Below, piece after piece: positions 36,248 through 39,800 of a stretch of DNA of 64,000 bases (positions are counted from its first letter, which is position 1; each line of letters begins with the position of its first letter). The translations under genes were made by a program, and so were the position numbers. The stretch lies in the IMG/VR virus record IMGVR_UViG_3300049215_000686, positions 32,001-96,000 of that record; one strand, 5' to 3'. The notes beneath the pieces are model-generated. The model was not told the origin of the DNA, ran no database searches, and was given only the letters and a program-made list of their open reading frames with translations. This stretch comes from a virus.

Positions 36248-36323
36248 TGGAGCCGCTGGACCGACTTGAACGGTCATCACAATCGTACCGGGATTGTGTT
36301 TTTACCAGTTAAACTACAGCGGC
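36248..36323 (-). tRNA. tRNA-Thr(GGT), C at position 33
   Basis: GCCGCTG/CAGCGGC-T-CCA; CAATC-CCGGTAC-GATTG. Confidence 0.85.
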
Positions 36324-36324
36324 A

Positions 36325-36410
36325 TGGAGCCGATAGGATGATTCGAACATCCGTGGGATCTCTCCGCTCGTTTACAAAACGAGTGCAATCGTCCTCTATG
36401 CGATATCGGC
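36325..36410 (-). tRNA. tRNA-Thr(TGT) with long variable arm
   Basis: GCCGATA/TATCGGC-T-CCA; CTCGT-TTTGTAA-ACGAG; 14-nt V region. Confidence 0.85.
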
Positions 36411-36427
36411 AATAACATCGGCGAATT

Positions 36428-36501
36428 TGGAGCCTCGTGGCTGAATCGAACAGCCGATTGCTGAATACGAATCAGCAGTTATACCGTTTAACTAACGAGG
36501 C
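36428..36501 (-). tRNA. tRNA-Thr(CGT)
   Basis: GCCTCGT/ACGAGGC-T-CCA; GCTGA-TTCGTAT-TCAGC. Confidence 0.9.
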
Positions 36502-36516
36502 AAAGATCAGCAAATT

Positions 36517-36591
36517 TGGTGCGCGAGCCGGGAATTGAACCCGAATCTCATGACTGGCAGTCACGCATCATAGCCTTTAGACCACTCACGC
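36517..36591 (-). tRNA. tRNA-Gly(GCC)
   Basis: CGTGA-CTGCCAG-TCATG; encoded CCA. Confidence 0.88.
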
Positions 36592-36593
36592 AT

Positions 36594-36668
36594 TGGACCG
36601 GGTAGCGGGAATCGAACCCGCGAATCGACGTTGGAAGCGTCGCGTGTTACCACTAGCACTACACCCGG
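36594..36668 (-). tRNA. tRNA-Gly(TCC)
   Basis: CGACG-CTTCCAA-CGTCG; U73, CCA; C1:G72. Confidence 0.9.
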
Positions 36669-36727
36669 AAAGAAAACTATCTTTTACAAAATCCCCCATT
36701 TTGGATAAAATAGTTTCCATTTTTAAA

Positions 36728-36808
36728 TGGCGGGGTACACGGAAGTCGAATCCGTCTGATCTCTCGCGTGACAGGCGAGTGGCCACTCCCATCGCAGCCC
36801 CGTACCCC
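36728..36808 (-). tRNA. tRNA-Asp(GTC)
   Basis: GGGGTAC/GTACCCC-G-CCA; CTCGC-CTGTCAC-GCGAG. Confidence 0.88.
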
Positions 36809-36848
36809 AAAAACAAAAACCCCAGGAACCTTTCGGCACCTGGGGTTT
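36809..36848 (-). terminator. attenuator terminator of the Asp/Gly/Thr tRNA operon
   Basis: AAACCCCAGG-TGCCGAAAGGTT-CCTGGGGTTT-TTGTTTTT, ending immediately before tRNA-Asp. Confidence 0.85.
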
Positions 36849-36874
36849 GGAAACTTTTTGTTATTAAGCAAAAG

Positions 36875-36952
36875 TTACACAATCACCCCAGGAAGATTTG
36901 TATCTCCGTCCGTACCGGTTCCAGTGATGGTGTTTGTAATGAATTTGCTCAT
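36875..36952 (-). CDS. leader peptide MSKFITNTITGTGTDGDTNLPGVIV (Thr/Gly/Asp-rich)
   Basis: Translated by hand; 6 Thr, 4 Gly, 2 Asp; 3' CCTGGGGT is complementary to the terminator 5' arm. Confidence 0.8.
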   Translation of the reverse strand: MSKFITNTITGTGTDGDTNLPGVIV

Positions 36953-36958
36953 ATGTTT

Positions 36959-36987
36959 ATAATACCAAAATGAGTTCAGACCCACAA
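36959..36987 (-). promoter_or_regulatory. sigma70-like promoter for leader 2
   Basis: TTGTGG-17 nt-TATTAT with TGn extension, 6 nt before the leader ATG. Confidence 0.6.
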
Positions 36988-37002: not shown

Positions 37003-37194
37003 ATGCCTGACATTACCATGTGCGACAATGAAAAATGTGCGCTGCGGCAAGACTGTTACCGCTTTACGGCTCAGCCTTCTCGATTTCAGTCTTATGCCCA
37101 TTTTGAGCCCCTAGACGAAACATGTTGCGATCATTTCTGGTGCAACAGTTCAGAAAAATTGGCACCGGACACAGGAGTCGAACCCGTTTCTTGA
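37003..37194 (+). CDS. small Cys-rich conserved phage protein
   Basis: MPDITMC...C.LR..CYRFTA.....QSY......C..FW pattern; TATAGT 6 nt upstream. Confidence 0.6.
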   Translation: MPDITMCDNEKCALRQDCYRFTAQPSRFQSYAHFEPLDETCCDHFWCNSSEKLAPDTGVEPVS

Positions 37195-37230
37195 ATTTTG
37201 GAGGTTCAATTGCGCCCCGCGCTATCCGGT
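37160..37230 (-). tRNA. tRNA-Trp(CCA), short D loop
   Basis: ACCGGAT/GTCCGGT-G-CCA; loop CTCCAAA; D arm GCGC-GGG-GCGC. Confidence 0.75.
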
Positions 37231-37280
37231 GTCTTATCCCTTATAGGTAATAAACTGGCTTTATAACCTATGGGTAATAA

Positions 37281-37358
37281 TGGTGCCGCAGATCCGAATC
37301 GAACGGATATTATGTCTGATCTTCAGTCAGATGCCATGACCACGTAGGCGACTGCGGC
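37281..37358 (-). tRNA. tRNA-Phe(GAA)
   Basis: GCCGCAG/CTGCGGC-A-CCA; TCTGA-CTGAAGA-TCAGA. Confidence 0.9.
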
Positions 37359-37363
37359 AAATT

Positions 37364-37439
37364 TGGTGGACCGACCCGGACTTGAACCGGGAATCCCTCG
37401 GTGCAAGCGAGGAGTTTTACCAATTAACACTATCAGCCC
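37364..37439 (-). tRNA. tRNA-Ala(TGC)
   Basis: G3:U70; CCTCG-CTTGCAC-CGAGG. Confidence 0.92.
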
Positions 37440-37444
37440 AATTT

Positions 37445-37530
37445 TGGTCGGAGGAGCAGGACTCGAACCTGCGAAGCCCAAAGACGCGTGATTTACAGTC
37501 ACGTGGGTTAGCCGCTCCCACCATCCTCCG
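37445..37530 (-). tRNA. tRNA-Tyr(GTA) with C1:G72 and long V arm
   Basis: CGGAGGA/TCCTCCG-A-CCA; CGTGA-CTGTAAA-TCACG. Confidence 0.9.
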
Positions 37531-37735
37531 AAATTTTCACATCAACTCCGAGTTCAAACCATCCCTTCCAGTGTTCGCCATTCCAAGTTTTTCTCTCAGA
37601 CTGAAATAGCCGCTTATTATCCCGAGATCTTCCTCCAAAAATCAAGAACATGTATTCTCCGTGTTCATGAATCCGGTTTTTGGCTCGATGGCTAATTGGG
37701 ATGAGTTTGACTTTGATACCTTTGTCCATTTCCAT
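37508..37735 (-). CDS. hypothetical protein
   Basis: 75 aa; stop lies inside the tRNA-Tyr 5' end. Confidence 0.5.
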   Translation of the reverse strand: MEMDKGIKVKLIPISHRAKNRIHEHGEYMFLIFGGRSRDNKRLFQSERKTWNGEHWKGWFELGVDVKISEDGGSG

Positions 37736-37914
37736 AAATCACTTTTCCGAATTGAAATCGCCTGCATCCGTCCTTGATAAACTCGTAAAGTCCGGTTCCA
37801 ATAACTCACGATCAAGGAAATCAGTTCGTCACTTTCTCCAAGAACTTTTTGAATTTCGAAATCAATATCGAGACAACTCATGTGTCGATAAAGATGGCCA
37901 GATTTAATTTTCAT
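37642..37914 (-). CDS. hypothetical protein
   Basis: 90 aa; G.LYRH..CLD motif. Confidence 0.5.
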   Translation of the reverse strand: MKIKSGHLYRHMSCLDIDFEIQKVLGESDELISLIVSYWNRTLRVYQGRMQAISIRKSDLWKWTKVSKSNSSQLAIEPKTGFMNTENTCS

Positions 37915-38104
37915 TTTTTGGCTTCCATCGCGTCTTTCGATACCGTTTCCAAGATCTCCGAGACCTAGACCATCCTCGCTTTGAATTTTCTCCTCGATTC
38001 GGCGGACAAATAGGGCATCGAAGTTTTACCCGCGAAGCCTTCTTATAAACCGCGCTATTGGTCGTTCCCGTTAATTCGTTATGATTTCGTCTTTTATCAC
38101 CCAT
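37904..38104 (-). CDS. small basic K/R-rich protein with CPICPP
   Basis: GGAGG SD inside an upstream hairpin. Confidence 0.55.
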   Translation of the reverse strand: MGDKRRNHNELTGTTNSAVYKKASRVKLRCPICPPNRGENSKRGWSRSRRSWKRYRKTRWKPKNEN

Positions 38105-38161
38105 TGCATGAATCCTCCCTAGTGGAAGGTCATGCGTCCTCGAATGTGCTTCATAATTTTT

Positions 38162-38236
38162 TGGTGGGGCCGAAGAGAATCGAACTCTTTCCTGGCAGAT
38201 TAAAAGTCTGCGGTGCCGCCTTTACACCACGACCCC
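38162..38236 (-). tRNA. tRNA-Lys(TTT)
   Basis: GCAGA-CTTTTAA-TCTGC; CCA. Confidence 0.9.
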
Positions 38237-38240
38237 AATT

Positions 38241-38315
38241 TGGCGGGATCGCAGAGACTTGAACTCTGATACACGGATTAAGAGTCCGCTGTAATAGCCG
38301 TTATACGACGATCCC
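38241..38315 (-). tRNA. tRNA-Lys(CTT)
   Basis: GGGATCG/CGATCCC-G-CCA; GCGGA-CTCTTAA-TCCGT. Confidence 0.9.
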
Positions 38316-38368
38316 CAATTTTTCCTTTCGTTTTCGTTTGTGTCGTTTCATATCGTTCCTTTAAATTT

Positions 38369-38443
38369 TGGCTCCAGGGGCAGGTTACGCTCCTGCATAT
38401 GACGCGTTAACAGCGCGTTCCTTTACTAGTCAGGCACCCTGGA
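38369..38443 (-). tRNA. tRNA-Asn(GTT), atypical T loop
   Basis: TCCAGGG/CCCTGGA-G-CCA; ACGCG-CTGTTAA-CGCGT; T loop AGCGTAA. Confidence 0.82.
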
Positions 38444-38831
38444 ATATATCTTTTCTTAAGCCCCGAATCTTACACGAACTGAAAGTCCCTCTCGCCATCC
38501 CAACAATTTTACAAGCATCATGTTCTGAATGTCCTAATTCTATAAGTTCAAGAACCTTAATGAACTTTTCATCAGAAATAGTCCTGGCTTCGGACTGGGG
38601 AATATCTTTAAATCTCTCACTCAAGTCTTTCTTTGTTTTTTCTAAATGGCATGACCGACAAAGCACTTGACATTTTTTAAGTTCCGCGTCTCTTTTAGAT
38701 TGAGTCCAACTCCAAATACGTGAAGAAACTTTAGTTTTAGGATCAATATGATCTAATTCCAATTCTTGCCATGATCCACATTGAACACAAGGTCCCTTTG
38801 CATCAAACCATTCCTTACGTCTTCTCGCCAT
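38430..38831 (-). CDS. HNH endonuclease with C-terminal HTH-like region
   Basis: CVQCG....LELDHIDP...KCQVLCRSCH. Confidence 0.85.
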   Translation of the reverse strand: MARRRKEWFDAKGPCVQCGSWQELELDHIDPKTKVSSRIWSWTQSKRDAELKKCQVLCRSCHLEKTKKDLSERFKDIPQSEARTISDEKFIKVLELIELGHSEHDACKIVGMARGTFSSCKIRGLRKDIFQGA

Positions 38832-38906: not shown

Positions 38907-38949
38907 AAAAAACGAAAACCCCGCTCAATCTTTTACGACTGGCGGGGTT
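38907..38949 (-). terminator. attenuator terminator of the Asn/Lys/Tyr/Ala/Phe/Trp tRNA operon
   Basis: AACCCCGC-CAGTC-GTAAAA-GATTG-A-GCGGGGTT-TTCGTTTTTT. Confidence 0.85.
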
Positions 38950-38976
38950 CTTAGAATCTTTTTTGTTTAAACAAAC

Positions 38977-39057
38977 TTACAAGAAAGATTTCACCCCGCG
39001 AGCCACCCAATTGGTCGCATTATTTTTAAAGTTATAGGCGAAATAATTCTTGTTCAT
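38977..39057 (-). CDS. leader peptide MNKNYFAYNFKNNATNWVARGVKSFL
   Basis: Translated by hand; TATAAT at 39067-39072; internal GCGGGGT is complementary to the terminator 5' arm. Confidence 0.8.
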   Translation of the reverse strand: MNKNYFAYNFKNNATNWVARGVKSFL

Positions 39058-39379: not shown

Positions 39380-39800
39380 TGGTGGAGGTGGGCGGAATTG
39401 AACCGCCGTCCAGAATCTTTCAGTCACCAAGTCATTCACACGCATATCTGGTTTTACGATCCAGCAATCAGGGTACGACCCGTTTTACCGAGTCTCCACC
39501 ACTTGGTTTATGTCCAAGAACAGGAGAGGCGTTTCCGCGTCCACCAGCCGCCAGTTTAACGTCTCGACGACCCGACGTTTTTGCCTTTCTTCTGTTTCTC
39601 GGCTCAGGCAGCCTCATTGTTTCCTAACCTAGGTCAGGCTACAAGGCGGAGATCAGCCTTACGGCTGAAATCCACGCGAACGACGTTGTCATTAGCATTT
39701 GTTGTTTGCATCTTTGTTTCCGGGGAATCCCCAAGGCAGCCTCATGCTCTGCCTGCGCGCACTCAATTTCCTCGTTATCCTGTCGAAACCTGTCACCCCC
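39380..39800 (-). ncRNA. ssrA: tmRNA; tag peptide ANDNVVRVDFSRKADLRLVA* (39634-39696)
   Basis: 5' GGGGGTGACAGGTTTCGACAG; 3' GACGGCGGTTCAATTCCGCCCACCTCCACCA with G3:U70; AND-type resume codon. Confidence 0.93.

Follow-up and report, generated by a model that had tools for sequence, protein, structure and literature searches.

Several enterobacterial amino-acid operons are preceded by leader-peptide attenuators (e.g., trpL, hisL, leuL, and pheL). Some of these attenuators are multivalent: the thr leader senses Thr and Ile, and the ilvGMEDA leader senses Ile, Val, and Leu. The E. coli pheST operon, which encodes phenylalanyl-tRNA synthetase, also has an attenuator, with a Phe-rich leader, pheM. 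Large phages such as T4 and T5 carry clusters of tRNA genes, which are seen as compensating for codon-usage mismatch, for host tRNA decay, and for anticodon-nuclease defence. The regulation of these genes is essentially undescribed and they are usually taken as passive cargo; as far as we searched, the phage tRNA literature treats them as simply expressed. The full-text literature searched (many subscription papers were beyond reach) contained no description of tRNA genes, whether of phages or of other origin, that are controlled by attenuation or by a leader peptide.

The element studied here, which we call module B, occupies positions 36,809–36,987 on the minus strand of the window (the whole stretch of DNA analysed, 64,000 nt long) and stands before a tRNA-Asp gene. 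From its sequence and from modelled folding, we consider it likely that module B is a ribosome-mediated (leader-peptide) transcription attenuator gating a phage tRNA operon. Several features of such attenuators were found at the site: a short ORF, a block of control codons, an intrinsic terminator, and a ribosome-sensitive antiterminator, the last in silico. As in the enterobacterial leaders, the short ORF has control codons for more than one amino acid, the antiterminator and the terminator are mutually exclusive and share a strand so that the position of the ribosome would set the fold, and the intrinsic terminator lies ahead of the first regulated gene. In contrast to these leaders, module B is phage-encoded and would regulate tRNA genes rather than biosynthetic enzymes, has no Shine-Dalgarno sequence and is apparently leaderless, and has no clear 1:2 protector hairpin, its untranslated state being predicted to be ON.

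By analogy, the pheST attenuator is the nearest functional counterpart of module B; in both, leader-peptide attenuation would control a decoding component for an amino acid that is sensed. The pheST system differs in being chromosomal, in responding to a single amino acid, and in regulating a synthetase gene, whereas the product of module B would be the tRNA itself, so that the feedback loop would close directly on tRNA supply. T-box riboswitches likewise use antitermination to gate decoding or aminoacylation genes by the state of a specific tRNA, but they bind uncharged tRNA through one specifier codon without translation, whereas module B has a translatable ORF with many codons. An Rfam search gave no T-box match at gathering or E-value thresholds, and among the amino-acid leader families (Trp, His, Thr, and Leu) the only match was His_leader, whose 23.7 bits (E = 0.71) fell short of the cut-off of 49. 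Module B belongs to no curated RNA family.

Genome and tRNA genes

The source virus record is a single sequence of 157,131 bp that codes for a portal protein, a DnaE-type polymerase, a DnaB helicase, SbcC, and an HNH endonuclease. The portal protein shares 33% identity with its counterpart in Myxococcus phage Mx1 and ∼30% with the portals of SPO1/Twort-like myoviruses. Nearly all genes, and every RNA gene, are on the minus strand. Genome-wide, 18 credible tRNA genes were found by ARAGORN at a relaxed threshold; two more relaxed calls, one with a four-base anticodon and the other a 103-nt Gly(CCC), were set aside. Seventeen of the 18 stand downstream of one of three putative attenuator modules (A, B, and C; Table 1).

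The genome also encodes a tmRNA, which was found by ARAGORN at the default threshold. It lies directly upstream of module A, without a module of its own, and its tag is unusual (20 residues, ending in LVA).

Leader ORF and putative promoter of module B

Codons 6–18 of the leader ORF encode the peptide T N T I T G T G T D G D T. The original prediction, made from the sequence of this site, was that 11 of these 13 codons specify Thr, Gly, or Asp, that all four Thr codons are used together with GGA/GGT and GAC/GAT, and that every downstream isoacceptor is thereby sampled; reading the ORF bore this out on each point. The Thr codons are ACA, ACC, ACT, ACC, ACG, and ACA, the Gly codons are GGA, GGT, and GGA (with a further GGG at codon 22), and the Asp codons are GAC and GAT; each of the six anticodons encoded downstream (GTC, TCC, GCC, CGT, TGT, and GGT) therefore has at least one cognate codon. 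The block also holds unmatched Asn and Ile codons, and the Asp codons number only two. When all 314,186 stretches of 13 codons in the six frames of the 157-kb genome were compared, 11 Thr, Gly, or Asp codons were reached at two places only, the second being a poly-Gly run near genome position 140.5 kb.

The leader is preceded by a putative promoter with an extended −10 element and a −35-like hexamer; the latter, TTGTGG, was not listed by a promoter consensus scan (3 of 6 positions match TTGACA). Because the −10 element ends so close to the ATG, the mRNA would be leaderless or nearly so, with transcription presumably starting at or beside the leader ATG. In the sister modules, TATAAT ends 9 and 6 nt before the ATG, and a Shine-Dalgarno sequence is absent before all three leaders. 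These positions suggest leaderless messages in all three modules, and translation of the leader would depend on such a start.

A gene for a small Cys-rich protein is divergent from the module B leader. A plus-strand promoter-like site (36934–36963) falls within the leader ORF, and thus the promoters of the leader and of this gene may interfere with one another.

Predicted alternative hairpins of module B

The pairing proposed in the original prediction was recovered base for base. The 8-nt segment CCTGGGGT (36892–36885) is an exact complement of ACCCCAGG (36846–36839) in the terminator 5′ arm, the pairing is extended by AACTTTT (36876–36870) with AAAAGTT (36858–36852), and the U tract, which was said to adjoin tRNA-Asp, ends at 36809, i.e., one base before that gene (36808–36728, ARAGORN). 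The terminator hairpin folds at −22.7 kcal/mol and the antiterminator hairpin (36892 to 36839) folds at −19.9 kcal/mol. In the full-length minimum free energy (MFE) fold, codons 5–9 pair with codons 22–25. When the untranslated RNA before the terminator was folded, the predicted structure was the antiterminator by default; therefore, the default state would be read-through, unlike trp superattenuation.

Table 1 Features of module B and of the related loci in the genome. Positions are those of the window unless the genome is named.
Feature	Position	Strand	Remarks
Module B, −35-like hexamer TTGTGG (putative)	36982..36987	−	Read from sequence; 17 nt upstream of −10
Module B, extended −10 TGgTATTAT (putative)	36959..36967	−	Ends 6 nt before ATG
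Module B, leader ORF, 25 codons + TAA (MSKFITNTITGTGTDGDTNLPGVIV)	ATG 36952, TAA 36877–36875	−	Read from sequence
Module B, control block, codons 6–18	36899..36937	−	6 Thr, 3 Gly, and 2 Asp in 13 codons
Module B, antiterminator 5′ strand, CCTGGGGT (codons 21–23) + AACTTTT (overlaps stop codon)	36870..36892	−	
Module B, shared strand, AAAAGTT + ACCCCAGG	36839..36858	−	Predicted to pair with leader end (antiterminator) or terminator 3′ arm
Module B, intrinsic terminator + U tract TTTTTGTTTTT	36809..36848	−	Hairpin 36848–36817, 32 nt, GAAA loop
Module B, putatively gated genes Asp(GTC), Gly(TCC), Gly(GCC), Thr(CGT), Thr(TGT), Thr(GGT)	36248..36808	−	ARAGORN + Rfam RF00005
Module A	38916..39057	−	26-codon leader 39057–38977; terminator 38950–38916
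Module A, tRNA set Asn(GTT), Lys(CTT), Lys(TTT), three small ORFs, Tyr, Ala, Phe, Trp(CCA)	37160..38443	−	
Module C	Genome 156002–155855 (outside window)	−	25-codon leader rich in Met, Arg, Val, Ile, and Ser
tmRNA	39380–39800	−	421 nt; Rfam 87 bits
Small Cys-rich protein gene	37018–37194	+	phrog_20586, E = 6e-9
tRNA-Asn(GTT)	38369–38443	−	Rfam 45.7 bits + relaxed ARAGORN
tRNA-Trp(CCA), atypical	37160–37230	−	71 nt
ORF of 74 aa, strong Shine-Dalgarno	Genome C1 155420–155779 (L004 1921–2280)	−	Between tRNA-Arg and tRNA-Met/Ile/Val
HNH endonuclease ORF	38430–38831		Between module A terminator and tRNAs

The effect of the ribosome was simulated by folding the RNA that precedes the terminator 3′ arm with a 28-nt ribosome footprint masked at each A-site codon; energies were equilibrium MFE values, which ignore folding kinetics. 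In module B, stalls at codons 2–17 left 7–8 of the 8 core terminator-arm bases sequestered, and those from codon 18 to the stop codon left 0–3 of 8. The switch occurred at codons 17 and 18 in modules A and C. Across the three modules, early stalls (to codon 16 or 17) sequestered 7–8 of the 8 core bases and later stalls sequestered 0–5; the simulated read-through range thus coincides with the tRNA-matched codon block in all three. The predicted logic is that fast translation would lead to termination and that slow or absent translation would lead to read-through.

Two of the downstream genes are unusually long for their type: tRNA-Asp (36728–36808, minus strand; 81 nt), which has an enlarged D loop, and tRNA-Thr(TGT) (36325–36410, minus strand; 86 nt). 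The tRNA-Asp gene was not reported by Rfam at either of the two thresholds used.

Sister modules in the same genome

Each of the three modules has a leader of 25–26 codons in which GGG-GTG stands near the end; their terminators fold at −22 to −23 kcal/mol, and the first downstream gene begins directly at the end of the U tract or a short way beyond it. Exactly three copies of the motif GGGGTG..ACCCC..GGGGTTTT are present in the genome, and a tRNA operon follows each of them. A generic detector, which required a terminator, an upstream complement of its 5′ arm, and a short ORF, was applied to 191 terminator-like hairpins and returned the three strong modules and three weaker, unrelated sites.

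The leader of module A is rich in Asn, Lys, Tyr, Phe, Ala, and Trp, and 15 of its codons 2–17 match the downstream tRNAs (Asn, two Lys, Tyr, Ala, Phe, and Trp); its segment GCGGGGT complements the terminator arm. In module C the complementary segment is CGGGGGT, and the U tract ends two bases before tRNA-Arg(TCT), behind which lie a small gene and tRNA-Met, tRNA-Ile, and tRNA-Val; five Ser and two CGN Arg codons of this leader have no phage tRNA. When each leader was compared with each of the three tRNA sets (3 × 3 test), the match to its own set was 0.72, 0.50, and 0.50 of residues, and the match to the other two sets was 0.08–0.21. For codons 2–17 only, these values were 0.94, 0.62, and 0.62, as against 0.00–0.19 for the other sets. 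Neither base composition nor codon usage can account for this specificity, since the three leaders come from a single genome. The leaders have no sequence in common except the Gly-Val dictated by GGGGTG.

In the operon of module A, the 5′ end of tRNA-Asn(GTT), which was missed by ARAGORN at the default threshold, overlaps the stop codon of the HNH endonuclease ORF; this ORF is placed as if a homing endonuclease had been inserted in the operon. In the tRNA-Trp(CCA) gene the D arm is reduced and the anticodon stem is closed by a C-A mismatch; the gene was found by relaxed ARAGORN only and not by Rfam, and a plus-strand gene overlaps it with its 3′ end. A functional tRNA-Trp gene would agree with this location and with the one Trp codon in leader A. 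In module C, the 74-aa ORF lies inside the operon, so that a protein gene would be co-regulated with the tRNAs. A Lys/Arg-rich ORF of 16 codons (38351–38301, minus strand), which has a good Shine-Dalgarno sequence and overlaps the first 15 nt of tRNA-Lys(CTT), was considered as a further attenuator and rejected: it has neither a terminator nor an alternative hairpin, and the actual module of the tRNA-Lys block is module A, upstream at 39057–38916.

Survey of viral contigs

Because no orthologous locus was found through the neighbouring proteins, IMG/VR was searched by pattern. Scans of IMG/VR with the 328-aa lipoprotein-like gene and with DnaB gave no relatives, and a wider protein search gave relatives at 33–44% identity; the contigs of these relatives (L001–L003) carried no tRNAs, and therefore there was no orthologous module to align. 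A search of IMG/VR with the module motif returned 116 stretches, eight of them before tRNA clusters. At these tRNA loci the leader mirrored the tRNA set in three distinct cases, and the other two were unclear or incomplete.

A leader-blind search of viral contigs was based only on a terminator abutting a tRNA (ACCCC..GGGGTTTT..T-loop), with no selection on the leader, and yielded 89 distinct sites. At 26 of the 89, the upstream sequence contained a complement to the terminator arm that was 7 nt or longer, whereas shuffling that sequence gave an expectation of 2.4 sites; a short ORF was present at each of the 26. No such complement was found at the remaining 63 sites (45 had no leader even at 6 nt); therefore, a module cannot be diagnosed from the juxtaposition of terminator and tRNA alone. 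In most cases, the 5′ strand of the antiterminator fell within the final few codons of the leader, its median start being 18 nt ahead of the stop codon.

Leader composition tracks the downstream tRNA set, both within the genome and across 37 distinct leaders (34 from the survey and the three of this genome), whose ORFs were chosen blind to composition. Over the 37 leaders, 0.417 of residues matched the downstream tRNAs. Permuted tRNA sets gave 0.243 ± 0.016 with a maximum of 0.311, and none of 20,000 permutations reached the observed value (z = 10.7). The other five frames matched at 0.19–0.22 (Wilcoxon test, P ≈ 1e-6 to 2e-7), and nucleotide-shuffled leaders matched at 0.236 ± 0.013. These three controls exclude base composition as the cause; the original prediction that base composition does not lie behind the codon match was thus upheld, by these controls and by the 3 × 3 test. 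At the level of synonymous codons, 99 of 144 informative codons were readable by the encoded anticodons (72.7 expected, z = 4.5). Individual loci showed the same trend: seven Ser codons in a row, of four codon types, stand before four tRNA-Ser genes (L231), a Leu-rich leader stands before five tRNA-Leu genes (L229), and Pro/Gln/His leaders stand before blocks of Pro, His, and Gln tRNAs. Across loci, the composition of the leader was kept and its sequence was not.

Two further kinds of site were observed in IMG/VR. At one locus (L181), the module stands before a suppressor-type tRNA (anticodon TTA) and tRNA-Tyr, and the leader contains Tyr-Tyr. In a large group of near-identical sites (e.g., L219, L221, L122, and L129), mostly without a leader ORF, the terminator abuts a single tRNA-Ala(TGC) gene; this arrangement is different from that of the attenuator modules.

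Proposed mechanism and alternative explanations

Under the attenuator model, transcription would start at or beside the ATG of the 25-codon leader, and a ribosome would translate the leader behind the RNA polymerase. When Thr-, Gly-, and Asp-tRNAs are plentiful, the ribosome would reach the last codons and the stop codon, where it would cover or unwind CCTGGGGT/AACTTTT and leave ACCCCAGG free for the terminator; the transcript would then end in the U tract, one base before tRNA-Asp. When any Thr, Gly, or Asp codon within codons 6–18 is decoded slowly, the ribosome would stay upstream, the −19.9 kcal/mol antiterminator would form first, the terminator would be blocked, and polymerase would read through into the Asp-Gly-Gly-Thr-Thr-Thr operon, after which RNase P would presumably remove the leader. 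The net effect would be negative feedback, the tRNA set being made on shortage of these charged tRNAs and stopped when supply returns. Thus stated, the Asp, Gly, and Thr tRNAs are probably made mainly when ribosomes read the matching codons slowly, and the genome would hold two more circuits of the same kind for other tRNA sets. The attenuator reading of the original prediction drew support from three independent computational lines: the sister modules, the leader-blind survey, and the simulated stalls.

An unlikely alternative is that the switch is real but senses the general status of translation rather than the supply of specific tRNAs, the codon match being secondary. A ribosome at the leader end would still cause termination, and loss of translation through host shut-off or ribosome shortage would turn the operon on. 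The predicted default folding of untranslated RNA as antiterminator agrees with such a sensor, and a leaderless start could make initiation the variable step. A general sensor needs no codon match, whereas leader composition was observed to follow the tRNA set in this genome and over the 37 leaders, down to synonymous codons.

It is also decidedly unlikely that the hairpin serves to process, stabilize, or insulate the tRNA precursor at its 5′ end, or that it simply terminates transcripts arriving from the upstream tRNA block, with the ORF left untranslated. Three observations are consistent with this explanation: the lack of a Shine-Dalgarno sequence, the upstream Tyr-Ala-Phe-Trp operon, which has no obvious terminator of its own before the site, and the many viral terminator-to-tRNA sites that have no leader. 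However, a constitutive terminator would silence six tRNA genes, because the U tract and tRNA-Asp leave no space between them for a promoter. The in-frame ORFs from ATG to stop, whose composition tracks tRNA identity in the ORF frame only, would also be left unexplained, as would the 11-fold excess of upstream complements of the terminator arm.

A chance ORF beside an ordinary terminator is a further alternative, given that short ORFs abound and that attention was drawn to the Thr/Gly/Asp match post hoc; the rarity of an 11-of-13 match in any frame of the genome, the three paralogous modules, and the family-wide z = 10.7 make that explanation very improbable. A functional micropeptide encoded by the short ORF, for which we found no specific point in favour, is hardly credible, since the three leaders share nothing beyond the Gly-Val dictated by GGGGTG and composition, not sequence, is kept across loci.

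If the attenuator model is right, the classical trp/his mechanism would have been reused for the direct supply of tRNA, with the product closing the feedback loop, phages would monitor the decoding of defined codon sets in real time, and the grouping of phage tRNA genes in blocks would have a regulatory logic. The modules would then be compact natural parts of ∼140 nt that report the availability of chosen tRNAs. More tentatively, and with somewhat less than even confidence, we propose a general, modular "tRNA-on-demand" circuit in large phages, in which every tRNA block would stand behind a leader that samples precisely the codons read by its tRNAs. Synthesis of the phage tRNAs would be turned ON once the matching host tRNAs are depleted or cleaved, and OFF by the phage tRNAs themselves. 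Such loss of host tRNAs could be triggered by codon-usage mismatch, host tRNA decay, or anticodon-nuclease defence, and the element would be both a homeostat and a sensor of tRNA-targeting immunity. The proposal gives a simple hypothesis for how a phage responds to host tRNA depletion or to anticodon nucleases.

Cultured phages and prokaryotic genomes

In blastn searches of cultured phages, the module B region and three IMG/VR modules gave tRNA-level matches or nothing. Judged by its portal protein, Myxococcus phage Mx1 is the closest cultured phage; it has 37 tRNA genes in the 23-kb stretch examined (ARAGORN) and 29 in the whole record (Rfam). The detector found no leader module in this 23-kb stretch, and Mx1 was rejected as a ready model system for that reason; one terminator abuts tRNA-Lys there, without a closed short ORF.

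The leader-blind pattern was also applied to one genome per prokaryote species. Eighty-one sites were found, seven of them with an arm complement (3.0 expected), and only two convincing modules were observed, both on contigs of metagenome-assembled genomes (MAGs; L345 and L315). The rarity of the design in the prokaryote survey makes it largely a phage feature: it is seen in dozens of unrelated viral contigs and hardly in prokaryote genomes. The two MAG modules are probably phage or prophage DNA binned with bacteria. The first has a Leu/Ser/Tyr leader before tRNA-Tyr, two tRNA-Ser, and three tRNA-Leu genes, and the second has a Met/Arg/Ile/Lys/Val leader before a block of 11 tRNAs.
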